Shown: positions 9,918 to 37,276 of the stretch, piece by piece
Layout of the letters: each line of letters opens with the position of its first letter
Position numbering within the stretch: the first letter of the stretch is position 1
From: Patescibacteria group bacterium
Lineage (GTDB): Bacteria > Patescibacteriota > Minisyncoccia > Phycocordibacterales > JBBUBG01
DNA: 51,450 nt
Reading direction: 5' to 3'
NCBI GenBank assembly: GCA_040384765.1
Contig: JAZKIQ010000003.1
Coordinates: forward strand, 1-51,450
Notes under the pieces: generated by a model
Told to the model about the DNA's origin: nothing
Databases searched by the model: none
Seen by the model: only the letters and a program-made list of their open reading frames with translations
Program-made: the position numbers and the translations under genes

Positions 9918-10086
9918 CGCCTCTCCTTGTTCATCTCCCCCAGATCTATACCCTCCGCAGGATACCTGAGGCGAGCTCCCTTGGAAAGCTCTGCTGGTCG
10001 ATTGGTGCCGCGTGAGTGAATCGAACACTCTTCAGACGCTCTTCAGGCGTCTGCTTTACCGTTAAGCTAACGCGGCTTAGGCATCT

Positions 10087-13039: not shown

Positions 13040-13281
13040 GAGAACGCTCCTTCCCGATGCGCGAAGCATCGGATCATTCCACCCTTCCTGCAGATTTTGC
13101 ACGGAGGAGTTTGGAAGCGTGGCCTCAATTTTTGAGATAACGATTCCAAACTCCTCCTTCAAAGAACATCTTTCAGGACCTACGATCCTTTCAGATCACA
13201 AATCCATTCAAGACGGACAGGTGGGCATTTTTCATGCGAAACACCTGTCCGTTACCTCTACTTCTTGCCTACCTGCTTTTC

Positions 13282-13452: not shown

Positions 13453-13708
13453 TTCTCGTTTCCTCACAGTTACAGTTACGGTTAGTAGGTATGCAACAGT
13501 AGGCAACTCAGGCGACTATTCTTATTTTATTGAGAACTATTCCGGTGCTTAGAGCTCCAGAGCTGGTTCGAAACTATTGTTTTCGAATTCAGCATACGAA
13601 GTTCAAGCTCTCCACCTACAGAACGCGAAACTCGTGCTTCGCATTCTGATGAGTGGGACGCATTAGTTTTACAACGCTCGTCCCGACGTTGCTCCTTTCA
13701 GAGAGTTA

Positions 13709-14092
13709 CTATTCCTTCCACTCCGGTTCCGACCAGTCGGTCACGAATCCGATTGCGGTTTCCTTCTTCTTGAGGAGAGCATCGCCCTCTTCGAGAGAAA
13801 GCGGAATCCGCTTCTCGTATTCCCGACCCTCTAGGCCGACGTAATGTCCGCCTTCGAGGAGTTCGTACCAGTCCCAAGACCCCTGCTTCAAGCGTTGGAT
13901 CCGAAACCGTACCGGCATCTGGTCAGGGCTGACCTCGTGCCATTCGGCGCACACAATGCTCTCCACGTAGACAGAGGCGGCAGGTCGAGTCATGACCCGC
14001 TCCTCTGCTTCGAGAGCAAGCGCGTCGAGCGTCCACACATGTGCCAGCACCAGAAGGGTCAATGCAACGACGATCGTGATGTTTCTCATCAT
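13709..14092 (-). CDS. Signal-peptide/TM orphan protein
   Basis: MMRNITIVVALTLLVLAH hydrophobic start; GAAGGT upstream. Confidence 0.65.
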   Translation of the reverse strand: MMRNITIVVALTLLVLAHVWTLDALALEAEERVMTRPAASVYVESIVCAEWHEVSPDQMPVRFRIQRLKQGSWDWYELLEGGHYVGLEGREYEKRIPLSLEEGDALLKKKETAIGFVTDWSEPEWKE

Positions 14093-14114
14093 ATTCGTGT
14101 CACTTACCTTCGGG

Positions 14115-14282
14115 CTAGAGCATGTCAGACATGGTCTCGGATGCCACCGCGCGGCGCTTCGAGTCGATTTCGCGGACGAGATCCTTGCAGATGACCTTGC
14201 GGCCAACCGGACCGTCCTTGAATTCGACATCGAGGCGAGCGAGGAGGTTCTGGGCGTAGCGGTACGTGCGATTGGTGTTCAT
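14115..14282 (-). CDS. Small orphan protein (55 aa, not in ORF track)
   Basis: AAGGAG-N6-ATG; MNTNRTYRYAQNLLARLDVEFKDGPVGRKVICKDLVREIDSKRRAVASETMSDML*. Confidence 0.65.
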   Translation of the reverse strand: MNTNRTYRYAQNLLARLDVEFKDGPVGRKVICKDLVREIDSKRRAVASETMSDML

Positions 14283-14424
14283 GTCGTGCTCCTTGTTTGG
14301 GAAAAGAGCGCGGCAACTTCATGGTACTTCTGCTGCGTCGTGTGCTGCATACTTCTGGCGCAGGTAAGCGCCAACTACTACGGCAACTGCAACTTCTACT
14401 ACCACTACAAAACAACTACTCGCA

Positions 14425-14520
14425 CTAACCCTGGTGCACCACGGCGGCGAAAGCCGTCATGAGCACCGTGGCCACCACCCAGAAGGGCGGCAGCAACTCC
14501 AGCGCTACGATCTTACTCAC
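14425..14520 (-). CDS. Small hydrophobic peptide (~31 aa), start uncertain
   Basis: GAAGGAGGTGA then SKIVALELLPPFWVVATVLMTAFAAVVHQG*; directly 3' of hammerhead 2. Confidence 0.4.
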   Translation of the reverse strand: MSKIVALELLPPFWVVATVLMTAFAAVVHQG

Positions 14521-14538
14521 CTCCTTCAATTTGTTCAA

Positions 14539-14611
14539 GAGCAACTGTTTCGTCCTTTCGGACTCATCAGGCGGAACGTCGTATTGACGTAAATTCCGCG
14601 ACAGGTGGCTC
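14539..14611 (-). ncRNA. Type III hammerhead ribozyme (HHR2)
   Basis: CUGUC^GCGGAA-(UUUA bulge, CGUC/GACG)-UUCCGC-CUGAUGA-GUCC-GAAA-GGAC-GAAA-CAG; complete core, GUC triplet, cleavage predicted between 14600 and 14599. Confidence 0.93.
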
Positions 14612-14639
14612 GCGAGAACCCGAGGGTTCCCGCCAGCCG

Positions 14640-14771
14640 CTACTCTTCCATGAGTTCTTTAATACGATGGTCCCGTCGCTCTCGGGGCGTCATGTTCGCG
14701 AGCCTCCAGAGGCTCACCGACATTTTCACCATTCCGATCGCGAGCGACCCGACCGCGACTACAGCCAGCAT
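14640..14771 (-). CDS. Small TM peptide (43 aa) or frameshifted 3' part of 14759-14941
   Basis: GGAG-N6-ATG; MLAVVAVGSLAIGMVKMSVSLWRLANMTPRERRDHRIKELMEE*. Confidence 0.45.
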   Translation of the reverse strand: MLAVVAVGSLAIGMVKMSVSLWRLANMTPRERRDHRIKELMEE

Positions 14772-14941
14772 GCCATTCTCCGAGCAACCGTCGGGTTGCC
14801 CCAGGTGGTCATGCGCCGCTCACTGCTCTTTTCCCGCTCGACACGCACCAGGTGCGCTTCGAGGGAGATGCGCGCGAGCATCTGTCCACCGAGCCACCCA
14901 AACGCGATCAGTACCGGCGAGAAGATCAGCACGATTGTCAT
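14759..14941 (-). CDS. Small TM orphan protein (60 aa)
   Basis: AAAGGAG-N6-ATG; MTIVLIFSPVLIAFGWLGG hydrophobic start. Confidence 0.6.
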   Translation of the reverse strand: MTIVLIFSPVLIAFGWLGGQMLARISLEAHLVRVEREKSSERRMTTWGNPTVARRMACWL

Positions 14942-14979
14942 CTCAATCTCCTTTGTCAGAAAAACTACAGCTCCCGATG

Positions 14980-15071
14980 CGGAGTCCCGAACTGAATCTT
15001 GAAACCTAACGGCTGCGCAGTGGAAAAATTTCCATCGATATGCGCTATTCAAAACTCAGTTCGAGACTCCG
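14980..15071 (-). ncRNA. Repeated structured RNA motif, copy B (family unknown)
   Basis: 24-bp closing stem with core GAACTGAGTTTTGAA/TTCAAGATTCAGTTC; inner GCGCA-TATCGA-hairpin-C-TGCGC. Confidence 0.6.
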
Positions 15072-15085
15072 TTTTTAATGTTCTT

Positions 15086-15136
15086 CTGCTTTCGCTCTTT
15101 CGAGCTCATCAGTCGGGATACACATCCCGAGAGCAG
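15086..15136 (-). ncRNA. Type III hammerhead ribozyme (HHR1)
   Basis: CUGCUC^UCGGGA-UGUGUA-UCCCGA-CUGAUGA-GCUC-GAAA-GAGC-GAAA-GCAG; all three stems pair; cleavage predicted between 15131 and 15130. Confidence 0.93.
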
Positions 15137-15193
15137 TCGGTATCTATTGGAGACACCGCGAGACTTTATAGAGTTTCTCGATCTCTTTTAGTG

Positions 15194-15766
15194 CTAGTAG
15201 TTAGCGAGCAGCGCGAACGGGGAGGTCCGGTCTTCCTCGATGTGGACATCGCGAACGATGTCCACGAGCGTGAAGTTCCGGTTCTCGACCACCCTGGACG
15301 GGAGCCCCATGAAGGAGCTCTCCCTCCCGGTGGCCGTGTCCCACTCGAGCGTGACTTCGAGGGTTTCGGCATCGACAGTTGCCTGGAACCAGCGACCAGT
15401 GGTCGCAGCACCATCCCAGCGGAGGATGGAAACCGTTCCAGTGGTAAATACATGTGCATTGATCCACCAGCTGCTTGCCGATGAGAAGCCGAGCATCGCT
15501 TGCTCAGCCAACTTCGTGAGTGCCGTCGGCAAGTCCAGCTTCCGGTAGATCGCTTCCCAAAGGGCTTCGTCGTACCGCCCCTGGATCCCCACGCGAAGGA
15601 ACTGGTCCAAACCGAGGCGTACCGCTTCGGCCCCGACACCAATCGCCCTTCCATGGGTAGCGACCCCCGTCTCGATCTCTTCTCCGTCACTGATGACGTC
15701 GAAGAAAGAAGTCGGGAGGCTTGCGAAGCGGACTGCGGACTGGGCACCATTCTGGATTGCGTTCAT
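15194..15766 (-). CDS. Orphan protein (190 aa), first gene of the ribozyme operon
   Basis: GGAG-N7-ATG before MNAIQNG; long open frame. Confidence 0.7.
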   Translation of the reverse strand: MNAIQNGAQSAVRFASLPTSFFDVISDGEEIETGVATHGRAIGVGAEAVRLGLDQFLRVGIQGRYDEALWEAIYRKLDLPTALTKLAEQAMLGFSSASSWWINAHVFTTGTVSILRWDGAATTGRWFQATVDAETLEVTLEWDTATGRESSFMGLPSRVVENRNFTLVDIVRDVHIEEDRTSPFALLANY

Positions 15767-15774
15767 GATCATTC

Positions 15775-16492
15775 TCCGTGGTCGCTCTGCGACCGACAAT
15801 CGAAAAAAGTTTCAAACAATCCTCTATAGCTATGGCGAGGCGAACTACAAACTAGCACTTGGAAATGTACTACCCGGATACCATGTCCGAGAGAAATCTA
15901 GGCAGAAGCGCGAGGATCCAAATTTTAAATAATTGATCTCGGGTCCGCCCAGGTTTCTCTCCTCAATCACACCCGCCACAAGCTTCGCAAGTTGGCGGAT
16001 TATTTTTCGTATACGAAAAATAAAAAGCGATTGAGATCTACCTTTAGAAAAAGATATGCCTCAATCGCTCTTCGATTCGTTGTCCCGAATCAAGGCGAAG
16101 GTTTGGCTCTCTCTTTCCAAAACTTCATATTTAGTTTTCAAATTTCCTACCCCCACTCGAGTAAACGAACTATTTCATTTACTCGATAAGGGGAGGGGGT
16201 CATGAGCGGCGCGCGGCGTTGTGAAAGTCGAATGCGCGCCGAATCACTCCCCCTCGTCGATCGAACAAAGTTGTCGATCCGTCAACCATACTCAGAATTC
16301 AAAGGAACCTCCTCTGTAAAATTCCCTGTACAATACAGTATCCGCGAATCGGCATTTGGTACGGGGGCTTCCCTTCTGGACCCTTAAAGTTTCCTTCAAA
16401 GGTGGAGCGAGCCGTCCTACGCCGCGCGATGTGGGGAGCTGGTCACTAGGTGGGCATCGGTCGCCCATCCCTCAACCTGACCTTATCCCTAC
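15775..16492 (-). ncRNA. ~720-nt hairpin-tiled non-coding leader (putative large structured RNA)
   Basis: No convincing ORF; more than ten consecutive stem-loops; starts just after a strong promoter. Confidence 0.5.
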
Positions 16493-16498
16493 ATGAGT

Positions 16499-16528
16499 AT
16501 AATAGCATACTATTGACTACTTTGTCAA
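16499..16528 (-). promoter_or_regulatory. Sigma70 promoter of the ribozyme operon
   Basis: TTGACA(16523-16528)-N18-TATTAT(16499-16504) with an extended TG. Confidence 0.6.
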
Positions 16529-16553: not shown

Positions 16554-16587
16554 ACTAAAAAATGGCTCTATTGAGCCATTTTTTAGT
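16554..16587. terminator. Terminator downstream of tRNA-Arg
   Basis: ACTAAAAAATGGCTC-TATT-GAGCCATTTTTTAGT. Confidence 0.75.
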
Positions 16588-16595
16588 CATATTTG

Positions 16596-16667
16596 TGCCC
16601 CTGGGAGGAATTGAACCACCATCTACCCCTTAGGACGGGGCTGTTCTATCCGTTGAACTACAAGGGC
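16596..16667 (-). tRNA. tRNA-Arg(CCT)
   Basis: GCCCTTGTAGTTCAACGGATAGAACA-GCCCC-GTCCTAA-GGGGT...GGTTCAATTCC...GGGGCA. Confidence 0.9.
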
Positions 16668-16674
16668 ATTTTCT

Positions 16675-16962
16675 TTACAACGTAGCTAGAATATCACGGT
16701 TATCTTCCTTGGCCACTTTATTCCTGCGCTCGATTGTGCACTTCGCACAGCGATACAAGATATCGTGCTCGCCGCTTGCCATCTCCTGCCCTATCGGCTC
16801 CATGAGCCCACCGCACGTTTCTGCTCTGTCACCAGGAAACACATCTACATGCTTTGACCAAAGGCACTCTGGGCAATGGTTTGTGTACCCATTCCCTTTT
16901 ACTTCGAGCCCGCATTGCTCACATATAAAATCTTCGATTTTCCGCTTGAATTGGATAGACAT
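16675..16962 (-). CDS. RNHCP domain protein
   Basis: FICEQCG...TNHCPECLWSKHVD..PGDRA..CGGLM. Confidence 0.9.
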   Translation of the reverse strand: MSIQFKRKIEDFICEQCGLEVKGNGYTNHCPECLWSKHVDVFPGDRAETCGGLMEPIGQEMASGEHDILYRCAKCTIERRNKVAKEDNRDILATL

Positions 16963-16977
16963 GGTGGATACGCCAAA

Positions 16978-17427
16978 TTAATTTAAAAAGTTTTTAAGGA
17001 GAAACGGCGAAAGATACGGTTTTAACATTTCTCGCTCCTTCTCGGAAAGTTTTTTAAAACCGGCAATCCTTCCTTTGCATGCACGGGCGGCACATAGGCA
17101 ATCAAAAATATCTTCACCATCCCAATCGCTCGTTAGGTAGTTGTAGGTAATCTCTTCATCGATACTAATATTTCGCATCGCCCTGAGCTCGAGCGCACTC
17201 CATCCTATATAGGCCGTAGGATCACAGGAGTGGTTGAGAAAATTTTCTGGAAGGTCAGGGTTTGTACTCAACTGATGCAGATCGAGGTCGACCCGCAGGG
17301 TTTTGTTCGTCGGCTTCGATACAAAACTCTGCTCAAAGGTAAAGAGTAACTCCTTTGGCTGGAACTGCTTAAGCGCAAACAACCCATATCCAGCGCCTTT
17401 TCTTCGCACTTCAATTCTTCCAGACAT
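16978..17427 (-). CDS. SET-domain protein-lysine methyltransferase with post-SET
   Basis: GYGLFA, FLNHSCDP, EEITYNY, CLCAARACKG. Confidence 0.9.
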   Translation of the reverse strand: MSGRIEVRRKGAGYGLFALKQFQPKELLFTFEQSFVSKPTNKTLRVDLDLHQLSTNPDLPENFLNHSCDPTAYIGWSALELRAMRNISIDEEITYNYLTSDWDGEDIFDCLCAARACKGRIAGFKKLSEKEREMLKPYLSPFLLKNFLN

Positions 17428-24749: not shown

Positions 24750-24777
24750 AAAGGCCGCCCGTGAGGGCGGCCTTTTC
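24750..24777. terminator. Terminator after RNase P RNA
   Basis: AAAAGGCCGCCC-GTGA-GGGCGGCCTTTT. Confidence 0.8.
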
Positions 24778-24781
24778 ATGT

Positions 24782-25111
24782 ACTGTATCTGTAAGCCGAA
24801 TTCTGTATCCACCGAAATGGACGATAGGCATTTATCTGGGCCTCACATTACTGTGAAGCTCGAGCGGCACTCCCTCCGAAGAGGGCACGGCCTTGCACTG
24901 AAGTAAGGATTTAGCCGTTTCACCCTCGTGTTACCACGAGGACGGTCCACGGGGGACCTCCTAGTCTTTCGACATCGGACGTTTCTGCTCGCACCTCTTG
25001 GATTACTCCAGACGGGTGTTACCCGCTACTCTCGCCACATCAATGAATTGTTGCAGCTCAGTGTTCGGACTTTCCTCTCCTGCTCTCGCAGGAGCACCTA
25101 CCCGACACAGC
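24782..25111 (-). ncRNA. rnpB: RNase P RNA
   Basis: GAGGAAAGTCC near the 5' end, ACAGAATTCGGCTTA near the 3' end, P1 GCTGTGTC/GATACAGT; TTGACT-N16-TATAAT promoter at 25118-25145. Confidence 0.95.
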
Positions 25112-25191
25112 AATACAATTATACCATAACTAACCGATAAGTCAAAAAGAAAAAACCGCCAGATAGCGGTTTTTTCTTTTCTAGCCTCTTT

Positions 25192-34205: not shown

Positions 34206-35453
34206 TTACCTTTTCTTTGCGCGATCCCTATATTTCTTCCTCTGAAGCCCAAGGTGGTATCGGTGAAAATCCTCACTATCACACTCCTTCTCAATCGTTA
34301 GCGCTTGCATACATCGCCCGCGCCTATACGGGCCGAACAATTTCGCGAATTCTCCCTGAAACCATGGCAGGGTTTGATACTCCTTGCCCTTCGTTGTCTC
34401 CGCTTCAAAATCAGGATTACCTGGAAGTCTCCCGTACTCATCCATTGCACCGGAACCGCCTGGACCGCCGCCCCACATGATTGTTCCTCCCCAGTGAATG
34501 GCTCGTGGGTCAGGCATCAGCAGATAGCCATGACCGTACGTATTCCAATCTGATTTTGAGACATGACGTTCCGGATATAGCCACTCTTCTTTCGCGGCGG
34601 CAATGTAACGAGCTGCTCGGCTCTTGATGATGAAATTAATCTCGCGAACTTCTTGCTCGCTCAGATCGCGTAATACTTGCACCTCAGTAAATTTGAATAT
34701 CGCACCTCGGAATGGATTTGGATTCGGCCGAGGCTTGGTGGCTGACTGGTACGGATTCCGCACCCACGAGAGATTGGTGAGAATGAGTGCTTTATCGATT
34801 GAAAGCGGGAAGATCGTATGGGTCCCCTGGAGCCAAATCTCGGGGTCATTCGACTCACGACACCATTGTGATCGAGGTCCGCATTCTCGGTTATATACGG
34901 TGACTGGGTGATCAGAGACGACAAACTTTGTAGCTGACTGAGACGCATCGACAATAAGCCAGACGCATTCCATCCAGAGCGCGGAGTGGAGTTGCCGCAG
35001 GCGGATCATTGCTCGGAGAAGCTGGTCTTTGTCCGAGCTGCCGATTTTTTTACTCAAGTACGATAGCCCTTTAGGCGTTCGAAGTTTTTGGGTACTCATA
35101 TAGAGCATTATGTCCTCAAGAGAGCTACCCCAGTCGATAAGCGGATACCCGAAATTCTCAAAGTACTCGACAGCAGGTCGCCCCTTCGTGTCAATCTCGC
35201 CGAAAAAGTGTTTCTCGATATCTTTCACTTCGATGCCACGGATTTTTGTGGTATAGAGATCCTTTTCGACGAAACACCTTTTGCTGCCTCGCGGCTCCAC
35301 GGCCTTTCTTGTATGACGCACGCCACGCGGATCGGTGAAAGTATCCGGATTGAAATCCAGGTGGAACAACTTATGCTCGCCAGGGAGCATGAATTTCCTT
35401 TGATACCACTGAGGCACATAATGGTGATTGCGGTATTCATCGGGCATTCCCAA
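34206..35453 (-). CDS. DUF4238 domain protein
   Basis: HHYVPQWYQRKF, FVVSDHPV, IFPLS. Confidence 0.8.
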   Translation of the reverse strand: MGMPDEYRNHHYVPQWYQRKFMLPGEHKLFHLDFNPDTFTDPRGVRHTRKAVEPRGSKRCFVEKDLYTTKIRGIEVKDIEKHFFGEIDTKGRPAVEYFENFGYPLIDWGSSLEDIMLYMSTQKLRTPKGLSYLSKKIGSSDKDQLLRAMIRLRQLHSALWMECVWLIVDASQSATKFVVSDHPVTVYNRECGPRSQWCRESNDPEIWLQGTHTIFPLSIDKALILTNLSWVRNPYQSATKPRPNPNPFRGAIFKFTEVQVLRDLSEQEVREINFIIKSRAARYIAAAKEEWLYPERHVSKSDWNTYGHGYLLMPDPRAIHWGGTIMWGGGPGGSGAMDEYGRLPGNPDFEAETTKGKEYQTLPWFQGEFAKLFGPYRRGRCMQALTIEKECDSEDFHRYHLGLQRKKYRDRAKKR

Positions 35454-35739
35454 AGATTACTCCTGTCAGCAAAAAAGTTCGAATCTCTTTCAGGTTCGAA
35501 CTTTTTTGCATTTATACGCGCCTTCAAGAATCCTTATTCTACAAGGTGAAATGGCCGCGTAACACCACCCCACTTTTCTGCGGGGACGATATCCGGAAGT
35601 TTGAACCGGAAAAGTGGCTCAAATTCAATAATCTTGATAAAAACATGTAGAAATTACGAACCATGCTCAAGCACTACTCTCAATGAGCGGAGGGGCACCG
35701 AAGCCAAAATCAACTGAGGGCAAGAATGAAGCTGGTTAT

Positions 35740-36819
35740 TCAATTAAAATCCAGTAACTCCCTGAAAAACTCCTTCGACTTCCAAAACAAATACTGCATG
35801 GTATAGAAGATTTTCTTCAAAAAACTACTTTCCATTTCTTGAGAAAGTCTTCTGTAAGCTGCCAGGCGAGTCGGAGTAACTAAGTCATTTTTGTAATCAT
35901 TCCAAAACTGATCAGTGTTGCCGTAGAACTCTACGTCCGAATTGTTTATGGAAAGACTATTAACCATAACTGTCAAACTTTCAGATAGTTTCTTATCGTT
36001 AATTTGATGATATGGCTTATAAGTTTTTCCAAAAACAATTGCTTTACGAGGCGAAATCGGGAGAATAAATGAATAGCCATCATCTCTGTTAAAGTCCCAT
36101 AGACTAGTAACTTCTAGTAGATCGTCGTCTCTACCGATAATACACACTGGGGAATCAGATAAAATGAAATAATGATTTTTTGGTGCAACTATTGTGTGAA
36201 GATTTTTTTGGTAAATCTCCTCAACGATGAACTCAGCAACTTGAATGGCTATAAAAAGCTCCTGCCCTCTTGTTTCTTCTAGACTGGACTTCCTAAGAGT
36301 TATGTCATTATCTATTTGCTTTCTGGTAATTTTGTATTTGTTCTTTACGATTATTTCTTGAATTTTTTCTCTGTTGCCGAGATCTTCTATGCTTATTAAA
36401 GCATTCAGCAGAAGGTATGCGATGCATTTATTGATCAACTTCCTGAATTTTCTTGTTCTAGTTAACTGATGAGCAACTAGAGTCGCCAAAATGCTTTCCT
36501 CTTCATATTTAAGGCTTAATATCCCATCTTGCCCTAAAACTTTTTTAACTACAGCAGGAGCGTGCTTCGCTTTTTCTATTTCTTTATAAACCTCATCGGA
36601 GACTTTTGCTGGCTCTTTTGTTTCTGCATGTCTTCCTAGGTAAAAATCAACTTCGTTTCCAGCATGCTTTGCAATGCTTCCTTTTTTGCTATCGAAAGCA
36701 GGTCTTTTATAAATGTACACAAGACCGGACTCCTGACCTGTCTGCTCTATAGCAAAATTTCTAAGTAGAAATTGTGGAACAAAATGATCTTTCTTATTTT
36801 TTACTCCATTATTCGCCAC
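35740..36819 (-). CDS. DUF4238 domain protein (AT-rich)
   Basis: DHFVPQFLLRNF, HQLTRT, FILSDSPV, LPISPR. Confidence 0.8.
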   Translation of the reverse strand: MANNGVKNKKDHFVPQFLLRNFAIEQTGQESGLVYIYKRPAFDSKKGSIAKHAGNEVDFYLGRHAETKEPAKVSDEVYKEIEKAKHAPAVVKKVLGQDGILSLKYEEESILATLVAHQLTRTRKFRKLINKCIAYLLLNALISIEDLGNREKIQEIIVKNKYKITRKQIDNDITLRKSSLEETRGQELFIAIQVAEFIVEEIYQKNLHTIVAPKNHYFILSDSPVCIIGRDDDLLEVTSLWDFNRDDGYSFILPISPRKAIVFGKTYKPYHQINDKKLSESLTVMVNSLSINNSDVEFYGNTDQFWNDYKNDLVTPTRLAAYRRLSQEMESSFLKKIFYTMQYLFWKSKEFFRELLDFN

Positions 36820-36820
36820 A

Positions 36821-37276
36821 TTATAGTGATTTTAGAAATTTTTCTTTAACAAAAACATAGAAAAATGTCCTGCTAATGAGCCAAAATATTACACTAACAA
36901 TAATAAACGATAGCACGTAAAAACCAGCCTTCTCAGATACTGAATATCTTGGTTTAGAAATTTGTGAATATTCTAGATTTTCTGGCACCGCTCCGTAGTC
37001 AAGAGGATTTACTTTTTTCCCGTTAATCACTGGGATTTCATCGGGATTTTGGCAACGCTTAGACAAATCATTTTCATTACTAAACCTATAGAAGTCTAGT
37101 CCGGGGTAAGGATTTTCAAATTCTTTGCCGTTGTCACATTTTACGAAAGAAACTTTTTTACTAGTAACGCTATAAGTTATCCAGAAACCAAATCCTTGGG
37201 CAAGGAAAAATGCGAGTACAAAAAATACTTTTAACGCTCGGTACCAGGCTTTTTGGTTTAAGGTTGATCTGTCCAT
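36821..37276 (-). CDS. Two-TM hypothetical protein (AT-rich)
   Basis: WYRALKV..TM, Cys pair, C-terminal TM. Confidence 0.7.
   Translation of the reverse strand: MDRSTLNQKAWYRALKVFFVLAFFLAQGFGFWITYSVTSKKVSFVKCDNGKEFENPYPGLDFYRFSNENDLSKRCQNPDEIPVINGKKVNPLDYGAVPENLEYSQISKPRYSVSEKAGFYVLSFIIVSVIFWLISRTFFYVFVKEKFLKSL

Follow-up and report, generated by a model that had tools for sequence, protein, structure and literature searches.

The minus strand of positions 14539 to 14611 carries a type III hammerhead, HHR2, which is probably a functional cis-cleaving ribozyme lying, as far as the sequence can tell, within a polycistronic minus-strand transcript of small ORFan genes. It is a hammerhead of an already known type and, judging by sequence and predicted structure, it belongs to a conserved hammerhead subfamily whose abundance in Patescibacteria we did not find in a literature search. 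The window, that is the whole stretch of 51,450 nt analysed here, is contig 3 of a genome of 0.82 Mb that is 99.8% complete and whose LepA is 60-69% identical to that of MAGs labelled Vogelbacteria, Yonathbacteria, Paceibacterota and Patescibacteria. The parts of HHR2 and the hairpin next to it are given below.

14539-14611, minus strand: HHR2, type III hammerhead (sequence, Rfam, MFE fold, covariance model R1, RNAalifold)
14611-14608 with 14542-14539, minus strand: outer arm GAGC/GCUC of HHR2 (sequence)
14604-14601 (CUGU) with 14548-14545, minus strand: stem III, 4 pairs
14600, minus strand: C17, predicted scissile bond 14600/14599
14599-14571, minus strand: stem I, 6-7 pairs, 5' bulge UUUA/UUA, 4-bp extension, loop AAUAC
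14570-14564, minus strand: CUGAUGA (sequence)
14563-14552, minus strand: stem II, GUCC-GAAA-GGAC (sequence)
14551-14548, minus strand: GAAA, followed by CAG at 14547-14545 (sequence)
14607-14638, minus strand: GC-rich hairpin directly upstream of HHR2, GGCU.GCGGGAACC-CUCG-GGUUCUCGC.AGCC

From 14611 to 14539 the minus strand reads exactly as given in the preliminary description of this DNA, which had called the element a second hammerhead of the same polarity with a core identical to that of a first one, HHR1. Sequence and Rfam both bear this out. Its structural claims hold as well: stem I is bulged, in the sequence and in the 73-nt fold, and all three stems of HHR1 and HHR2 differ in sequence while both sets pair. 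The predicted cut, 14600/14599, is the one that we obtained from our own numbering of the hammerhead positions.

Like the Rfam family RF00008 (Hammerhead_3, clan CL00010), HHR2 has the CUGAUGA...GAAA core, three helices with an open stem III, the cleavage triplet GUC (G14602-U14601-C14600) and the pairs G10.1-C11.1 and A15.1-U16.1. Unlike RF00008, it has a bulge and an extra 4-bp hairpin in stem I in place of a simple loop (GCGGAA(U), bulge UUUA/UUA, CGUC-AAUAC-GACG, (G)UUCCGC), and its score lies below the gathering cut-off. The conserved core, C3-U4-G5-A6-N7-G8-A9 and G12-A13-A14, is complete; the core-adjacent pairs, G1.1-C2.1 included, are all canonical; A14548 pairs with U14601, and C17 agrees with the H17 rule. 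Stems I and II are closed by loops, stem III is open and the core-flanking pairs are intact, which is the type III topology.

A search for the bare hammerhead core pattern was not significant: the window has 3 matches where 0.97 are expected, and 3 or more were also obtained in 11 of 100 shuffles. The full HHR2 motif, on the other hand, is statistically significant. RF00008 scored it at 45.8 bits (E 7.2e-8 for 6 kb x 4227 families), to be compared with a gathering cut-off of 48.5 bits, which is a curatorial threshold and not a biochemical one. For this reason HHR2 went unlisted in the gathering-score scan of the whole window, where only RNase P RNA and six tRNAs appeared. With R1, a covariance model built from 14 short related hammerheads that include HHR1 and leave HHR2 out, HHR2 obtained 51.6 bits (E 3.3e-12 within the window, filters off), whereas the top non-hammerhead match in the window had 12.2 bits. 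Searches with RF00008 and R1 found just two hammerheads, HHR1 and HHR2, in the whole genome. RNAalifold, run on a plain MAFFT alignment of 47 copies with their flanks that was not fitted to R1, recovered the three stems with HHR2 in register.

The MFE fold of the 73 nt is the three-way junction (-24.3 kcal/mol, z -2.87, 3 of 200 shuffles equally stable), and the stem I insert forms a clean 4-bp hairpin in it. In the 151-nt MFE fold stem III is displaced, and a rival outer pairing joins 14647-14639 with 14545-14537; as modelled in this longer context, the GAGC arm more likely serves as the base of the strong upstream hairpin (14638-14607). The loss of stem III in that fold, the score below the Rfam cut-off and the fact that HHR2 is the only one among 61 aligned copies with a stem I insertion could all be taken to mean that it is a chance or decayed look-alike, made non-cleaving by its bulged, extended stem I and its short stem III. 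We regard this as very unlikely: an independent model gives the motif an E-value of 3e-12, every core and core-adjacent position is canonical, and the insert is a regular hairpin, not random sequence. Moreover, similar hairpin insertions occur in stem II of 13 of the 61 copies, meaning that helix extensions are tolerated in the subfamily.

Taking HHR2 as an intact hammerhead, its periphery nevertheless differs from that of its relatives. These have a UGUGU-like loop I and an AAAA or GAAA loop II; in HHR2 the U-rich bulge UUUA stands at the equivalent place, 6-7 pairs from the core, where the relatives have their U/G-rich loop I, and loop II is GAAA. As a bulge takes the place of the usual loop I, which could contact loop II, it is uncertain whether HHR2 would be active at cellular Mg2+. 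In the Schistosoma type I ribozyme an internal stem I bulge contacts loop II. HHR2 is similar in that its U-rich stem I bulge faces loop II, the tertiary contact being only putative here, and it differs in having the type III topology.

We then looked at the distribution of the subfamily. Of 61 genomes of the Patescibacteria order to which this one belongs, 13 had RF00008 matches at E <= 0.01, and none of these matches reached the gathering cut-off (0/61), so that standard annotation will miss the subfamily in Patescibacteria. With R1 at E <= 1e-4 there were 75 matches, spread over 35 of the 151 genomes that were sampled from the order; of a further 150 genomes sampled from the phylum, 15 had R1 matches. 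A consensus pattern of the right half of the motif matched 62 IMG/VR viral contigs, in which R1 found 107 full type III matches; in the one contig that we inspected, genes for a Sak-like annealing protein and for exonuclease VIII lie near the hammerhead. The subfamily is thus common to phages and Patescibacteria. BLAST of one member against phage isolates returned weak partial matches only.

Alignment of 61 copies to R1 shows no variation in CUGAYGA and GAAA (61/61) or in U16.1 (60/60), and position 17 is C in 48 copies, A in 7, U in 5 and never G. Standard pairs fill 96.8% of the stem cells, compared with 30-47% when the partners are slid by 1-3 columns, a percentage that is partly built in by the fitting to R1 and by the structure-aware search; this does not apply to the compensatory changes or to the never-G rule. 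Fourteen of the 16 stem pairs carry changes on both sides, as counted on copies found by structure-aware searches in related genomes that are not independent. Covariation supports all three helices of the subfamily.

The preliminary description had judged HHR2 itself to be probably under selection and had proposed to look for covariation in homologous loci. The first statement stands for the hammerhead family only, as we found no locus orthologous to that of HHR2; likewise, covariation could be followed in the family copies and in an orthologue of HHR1, an HHR2 orthologue not being found. Three same-family genomes yielded only the HHR1 orthologue and a short core-level match to HHR2. The HHR1 orthologue lies on contig 58 of the same-family genome G002, where it was recognised through a common downstream leader; its core is intact and all three stems have changed compensatorily. 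HHR1 itself scores 32-34 bits with Rfam and its MFE fold has a z of -3.01; it reaches 74 bits with R1, but it is a seed member of that model.

The leader shared by these loci contains a long hairpin (14980-15071 here), for which RNAalifold on 3 loci from 2 same-family genomes gave -33.8 kcal/mol with 1 compensatory pair (counterparts at L191:55-185 (-) and L192:1440-1545 (-)). On contig 122 of G002 the leader hairpin occurs without a hammerhead, upstream of a different gene. In another hammerhead of that genome (L193, G002:C36:1135-1189, minus strand) the pair at the base of stem II is G10.1-U11.1, not G-C, and position 17 is A; on this sequence the hammerhead may be a weakened copy.

The GC-rich hairpin that abuts HHR2 turned out to be a general feature. 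At HHR2 the 41-nt upstream fold has -25.3 kcal/mol, the strongest of 60, and the hairpin (14638-14607) is also present in the 151-nt fold. A hairpin adjoins the 5' strand of stem III in 55 of the 60 Patescibacteria copies and in 80 of the 86 viral copies. The 41 nt upstream of the hammerheads have a mean MFE of -11.7 kcal/mol, compared with -7.4 in 355 control windows (Mann-Whitney p 7e-11, a value that overstates the case because kin are not independent). This rule leads to a testable idea for the use of self-cleaving RNAs, namely that both products keep structured ends.

In some copies the upstream element fits an H-type pseudoknot lying just before the hammerhead, with S1 of 4-5 bp, a short L1, an S2 of 5-9 bp that runs up to stem III and an L3 rich in A (18/60 copies, compared with 4.8 +/- 2.0 and a maximum of 10 for shuffled 5' parts). 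Examples are L113:2800-2840, L121:4029-4068, L109 and L110, and the S1 sequence varies between copies. HHR2 has no such pseudoknot, and ten loci of this type matched no Rfam family at gathering score.

On the other side of the hammerhead, a motif like (G/A)UUCUUUGAAAA occurs within the first 22 nt after 31 of the 61 Patescibacteria copies and in 3.1% of control windows, the regex having been defined after the data were seen; the motif follows only 1 of 86 viral copies. HHR2 carries CUCUUGAACAAA at 14541-14530. We also considered an outer helix between the 5' flank of the hairpin and the downstream motif. When folding was constrained to keep the hammerhead pairs, 37/60 copies formed 5 or more flank-flank pairs, compared with 49.5% of 600 shuffles, and HHR2 formed none; this candidate was rejected.

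The surroundings of HHR2 on the minus strand are, in the order of transcription:

16499-16528, minus strand: promoter-like site TTGACA-18-TATTAT with TG, 11/12 consensus
15194-15772, minus strand: 192-aa near-ORFan gene (ORF201), ending 55 nt before HHR1
15084-15138, minus strand: HHR1, type III hammerhead, C17 = 15131, predicted cut 15131/15130
14980-15071, minus strand: long conserved hairpin of the leader, after HHR1 and before the first small ORF, 24 predicted pairs
14759-14941, minus strand: 60-codon ORF, one hydrophobic helix, ATG preceded by AAGGAG at a distance of 7 nt
14640-14771, minus strand: 43-codon ORF with one hydrophobic helix, its ATG overlapping the end of the preceding ORF by 13 nt
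14425-14544, minus strand: hydrophobic mini-ORF of 28-39 codons after HHR2, with the SD-like GAAGGAGG at 14527-14520
13709-14092, minus strand: 127-aa ORFan whose N-terminus resembles a signal peptide, the next larger gene after HHR2

The abutting hairpin and HHR2 come between the 43-codon ORF and the mini-ORF. Both hammerheads are thus intergenic and on the same strand, 531 nt apart, and they bracket the two small ORFs. The promoter-like site, found by a consensus scan only (1 site, 2.7 expected in shuffles), is a weak candidate for the start of a transcript carrying both hammerheads. A search of 5.8 billion proteins gave a single homologue of ORF201 (54% identity), a search of 400 other genomes of the order gave none, and ORF201 matched no Pfam or PHROG family. 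Alignment searches of genome, viral and metagenome contigs found no relative of it, and a back-translated peptide pattern gave 3 chance loci, none with a tblastn or R1 match. A longer, 97-aa reading of the 60-codon ORF had no Pfam or PHROG family, the 43-codon ORF had only weak sub-threshold matches to such families, and the 127-aa ORFan had no Pfam, no PHROG and no relative in viral contigs.

The SD-like GAAGGAGG lies 72 nt past the predicted new 5' end, close to the distance of about 75 nt proposed earlier. No canonical start codon stands at a normal distance after it, the only in-frame candidate there being AUC at 14511-14509; TTG at 14529 or 14544 are the other candidates and the start of the mini-ORF is uncertain. 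The string UUGAAGGAGG-N8-AUCGU occurs twice on the minus strand, at 14507-14529 after HHR2 and at 13140-13162 at the head of a 211-aa ORF. The AUC at a normal SD distance at both UUGAAGGAGG sites hints at AUC initiation, or is due to chance.

If the genes of this locus are co-transcribed, the following processing can be proposed. The HHR2 transcript would fold into the three-way junction and cut after C17, between 14600 and 14599. The upstream RNA would then carry a 2',3'-cyclic phosphate after hairpin(14638-14607)-ACCUGUC, the hairpin becoming its 3'-terminal structure, and the downstream RNA would have a 5'-OH and open with the hairpins of stems I and II, with the SD-like site 72 nt in; the module would in this way leave both cleavage products with structured ends, which may protect them. 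Together with the HHR1 cut at 15131/15130, HHR2 cleavage would release a 531-nt RNA (15130-14600) encoding two tiny membrane proteins and separated from the upstream 192-aa gene and from the downstream genes, and each piece could have its own stability and translation. If the ribozymes do cleave, mRNA ends would be set without protein RNases. The stretch from 13600 to 15900 is present in three DNA runs of one study, with no RNA run listed.

The hammerhead pair thus probably chops a long mRNA into single-gene pieces, which is a known arrangement. In the available part of their paper, Perreault et al. 2011 (PMC3088659) describe tandem prophage hammerheads flanking single genes in three species (the Agrobacterium tumefaciens ardA triple, Clostridium scindens and Azorhizobium caulinodans), all of which cleaved in vitro and one set of which cleaved in vivo, and propose that long transcripts are processed into gene-length mRNAs. 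Our loci resemble these clusters, as far as described there, in that several same-strand intergenic hammerheads flank single genes or short blocks of varying identity. They differ in that the host of HHR1 and HHR2 is a 0.82-Mb Patescibacteria genome with no recognisable prophage genes nearby, and in that the module has a hairpin abutting stem III, which the available part of PMC3088659 does not mention. The supplementary alignments of PMC3088659 may already hold such sequences. A full-text search found no paper joining hammerheads with Patescibacteria, Parcubacteria or candidate phyla radiation, one unrelated review aside, and the roles of bacterial hammerheads were still described as largely elusive in the available part of a 2019 review (PMC6765202).

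The loci of the relatives show the same layout. Within each of 29 loci all hammerheads are on one strand, and the ORFs whose spacers they occupy share a strand, are often SD-led and measure about 58-175 aa. On one contig of 3.7 kb there are six hammerheads, mostly separated by single genes. The distance between the hammerheads of an array is irregular, ranging from about 250 nt to 3.1 kb, and the cargo varies as well. Few of the 113 candidate cargo ORFs have any family: TROVE/Ro60, RNA polymerase alpha CTD and STIV B116-like were each matched twice, and DnaJ, dCTP deaminase, RNHCP and tRNA_lig_CPD once.

Two hammerheads can also make a circle. In retrozymes and viroid-like circular RNAs, paired same-polarity type III hammerheads release an RNA of a few hundred nt with 5'-OH and cyclic-phosphate ends. 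HHR1 and HHR2 likewise bracket a few-hundred-nt RNA with the same polarity and would give the ends required, so that the 531-nt segment could be excised as a circular or autonomous RNA, its ends being joined by an RNA ligase or by the reverse reaction. The matches of the relatives' cargo to tRNA_lig_CPD (1) and Ro60/TROVE (2), which are RNA-end and RNA-quality-control proteins, fit this idea, and the available part of PMC3088659 raises spliced or circular products as a possibility; the same part reports that such products were looked for and none seen. Here this reading is highly improbable. Unlike retrozymes, HHR1 and HHR2 have no terminal or flanking direct repeats that we could find, their cargo is protein-coding, and neither RtcB nor TROVE genes were found in the 99.8%-complete genome. 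The irregular spacing and differing cargo of the relatives' arrays mean that there is no unit-length element, and flank-flank pairing of the kind that would hold the ends together was not enriched over shuffles (37/60 copies against 49.5%).

The processing of a host mRNA is also to be weighed against the view that the hammerheads remain from a former phage or mobile island, where they processed phage transcripts, and that they do nothing for the present host. The 6 kb around them, in an island bounded by tRNA-Arg (16595-16667) and tRNA-Phe (10003-10076), hold only small same-strand ORFans; ORF201 has a single known homologue; and the subfamily with the same hairpin is common in IMG/VR contigs, beside the Sak-like annealing protein and exonuclease VIII. 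These observations would suit a relic. However, Pfam and PHROG searches of the neighbouring window ORFs recognised no integrase, capsid, terminase or other PHROG gene near HHR1 and HHR2, those of the relatives' 113 cargo ORFs no integrase, virion protein or other phage gene, and no att-like repeats were found. Both cores are intact and compensatory changes have preserved the structure of the HHR1 orthologue in another genus, which argues for continued function, and the frequency of the downstream motif in Patescibacteria (31/61) compared with viral copies (1/86) argues for a host-lineage-specific form. We therefore hold a mere relic to be unlikely, and a processing role in the host is the reading that we prefer.

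A broader proposal, which is possible though doubtful, is that the hairpin and hammerhead modules form a punctuation system for the mRNAs of phages and Patescibacteria. Each small accessory gene of a hypervariable island would be released as its own mRNA, with a 3' end capped by the hairpin and the cyclic phosphate (about a third of the copies possibly having an H-type pseudoknot there) and a 5' end capped by the 5'-OH and the ribozyme fold. The system would replace terminators and promoters in genomes with few regulatory parts, and HHR2 would be a variant with a stem I bulge in place of the loop-loop contact. The locus and its subfamily are compact natural cases of tiny genes bracketed by hairpin-preceded ribozymes in very small genomes.

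Several observations were made on the genes near the hammerheads. Ro60/TROVE-vWA genes start 110-114 nt after a hammerhead in two loci (L028:6402-8246 and L111:4839-6455, the latter on the minus strand); downstream of the L028 gene there is a stretch of about 1.1 kb with no clear ORF, and L033 has a third homologue close to another hammerhead. A family of proteins of about 100 aa with a C-x-x-C-x-T-C motif and no Pfam family recurs directly after hammerheads in four genomes (L029:2579-2941, L033:6005-6334 (-), L109:3064-3354 (-), L110:5623-5916 and L111:3100-3753 (-)). A link to defence systems was dropped, as PADLOC on the 113 cargo ORFs gave scattered matches only and nothing consistent. Of 12 loci of relatives, 8 have TrmB-type regulators near the arrays; in this genome the three TrmB genes lie on a different contig, and TrmB is thus not part of the HHR1/HHR2 locus.

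Just after tRNA-Arg, a 15-bp perfect inverted repeat with flanking A and T runs (16554-16587) looks like a bidirectional terminator; the promoter-like site at 16499-16528 comes next on the minus strand. Just upstream of the island lie genes for an RNHCP-domain zinc-ribbon protein (16675-16962, minus strand, E 1.6e-28) and a SET-domain protein (16978-17427, minus strand, E 2e-11). Elsewhere in the window, the RNase P RNA (24776-25113, minus strand) is of bacterial class A (114.9 bits) with several helices shortened, which is ordinary for the group, and the G+C content of the region from 35001 to 37000 is 0.35-0.44, compared with about 0.52 in the rest.
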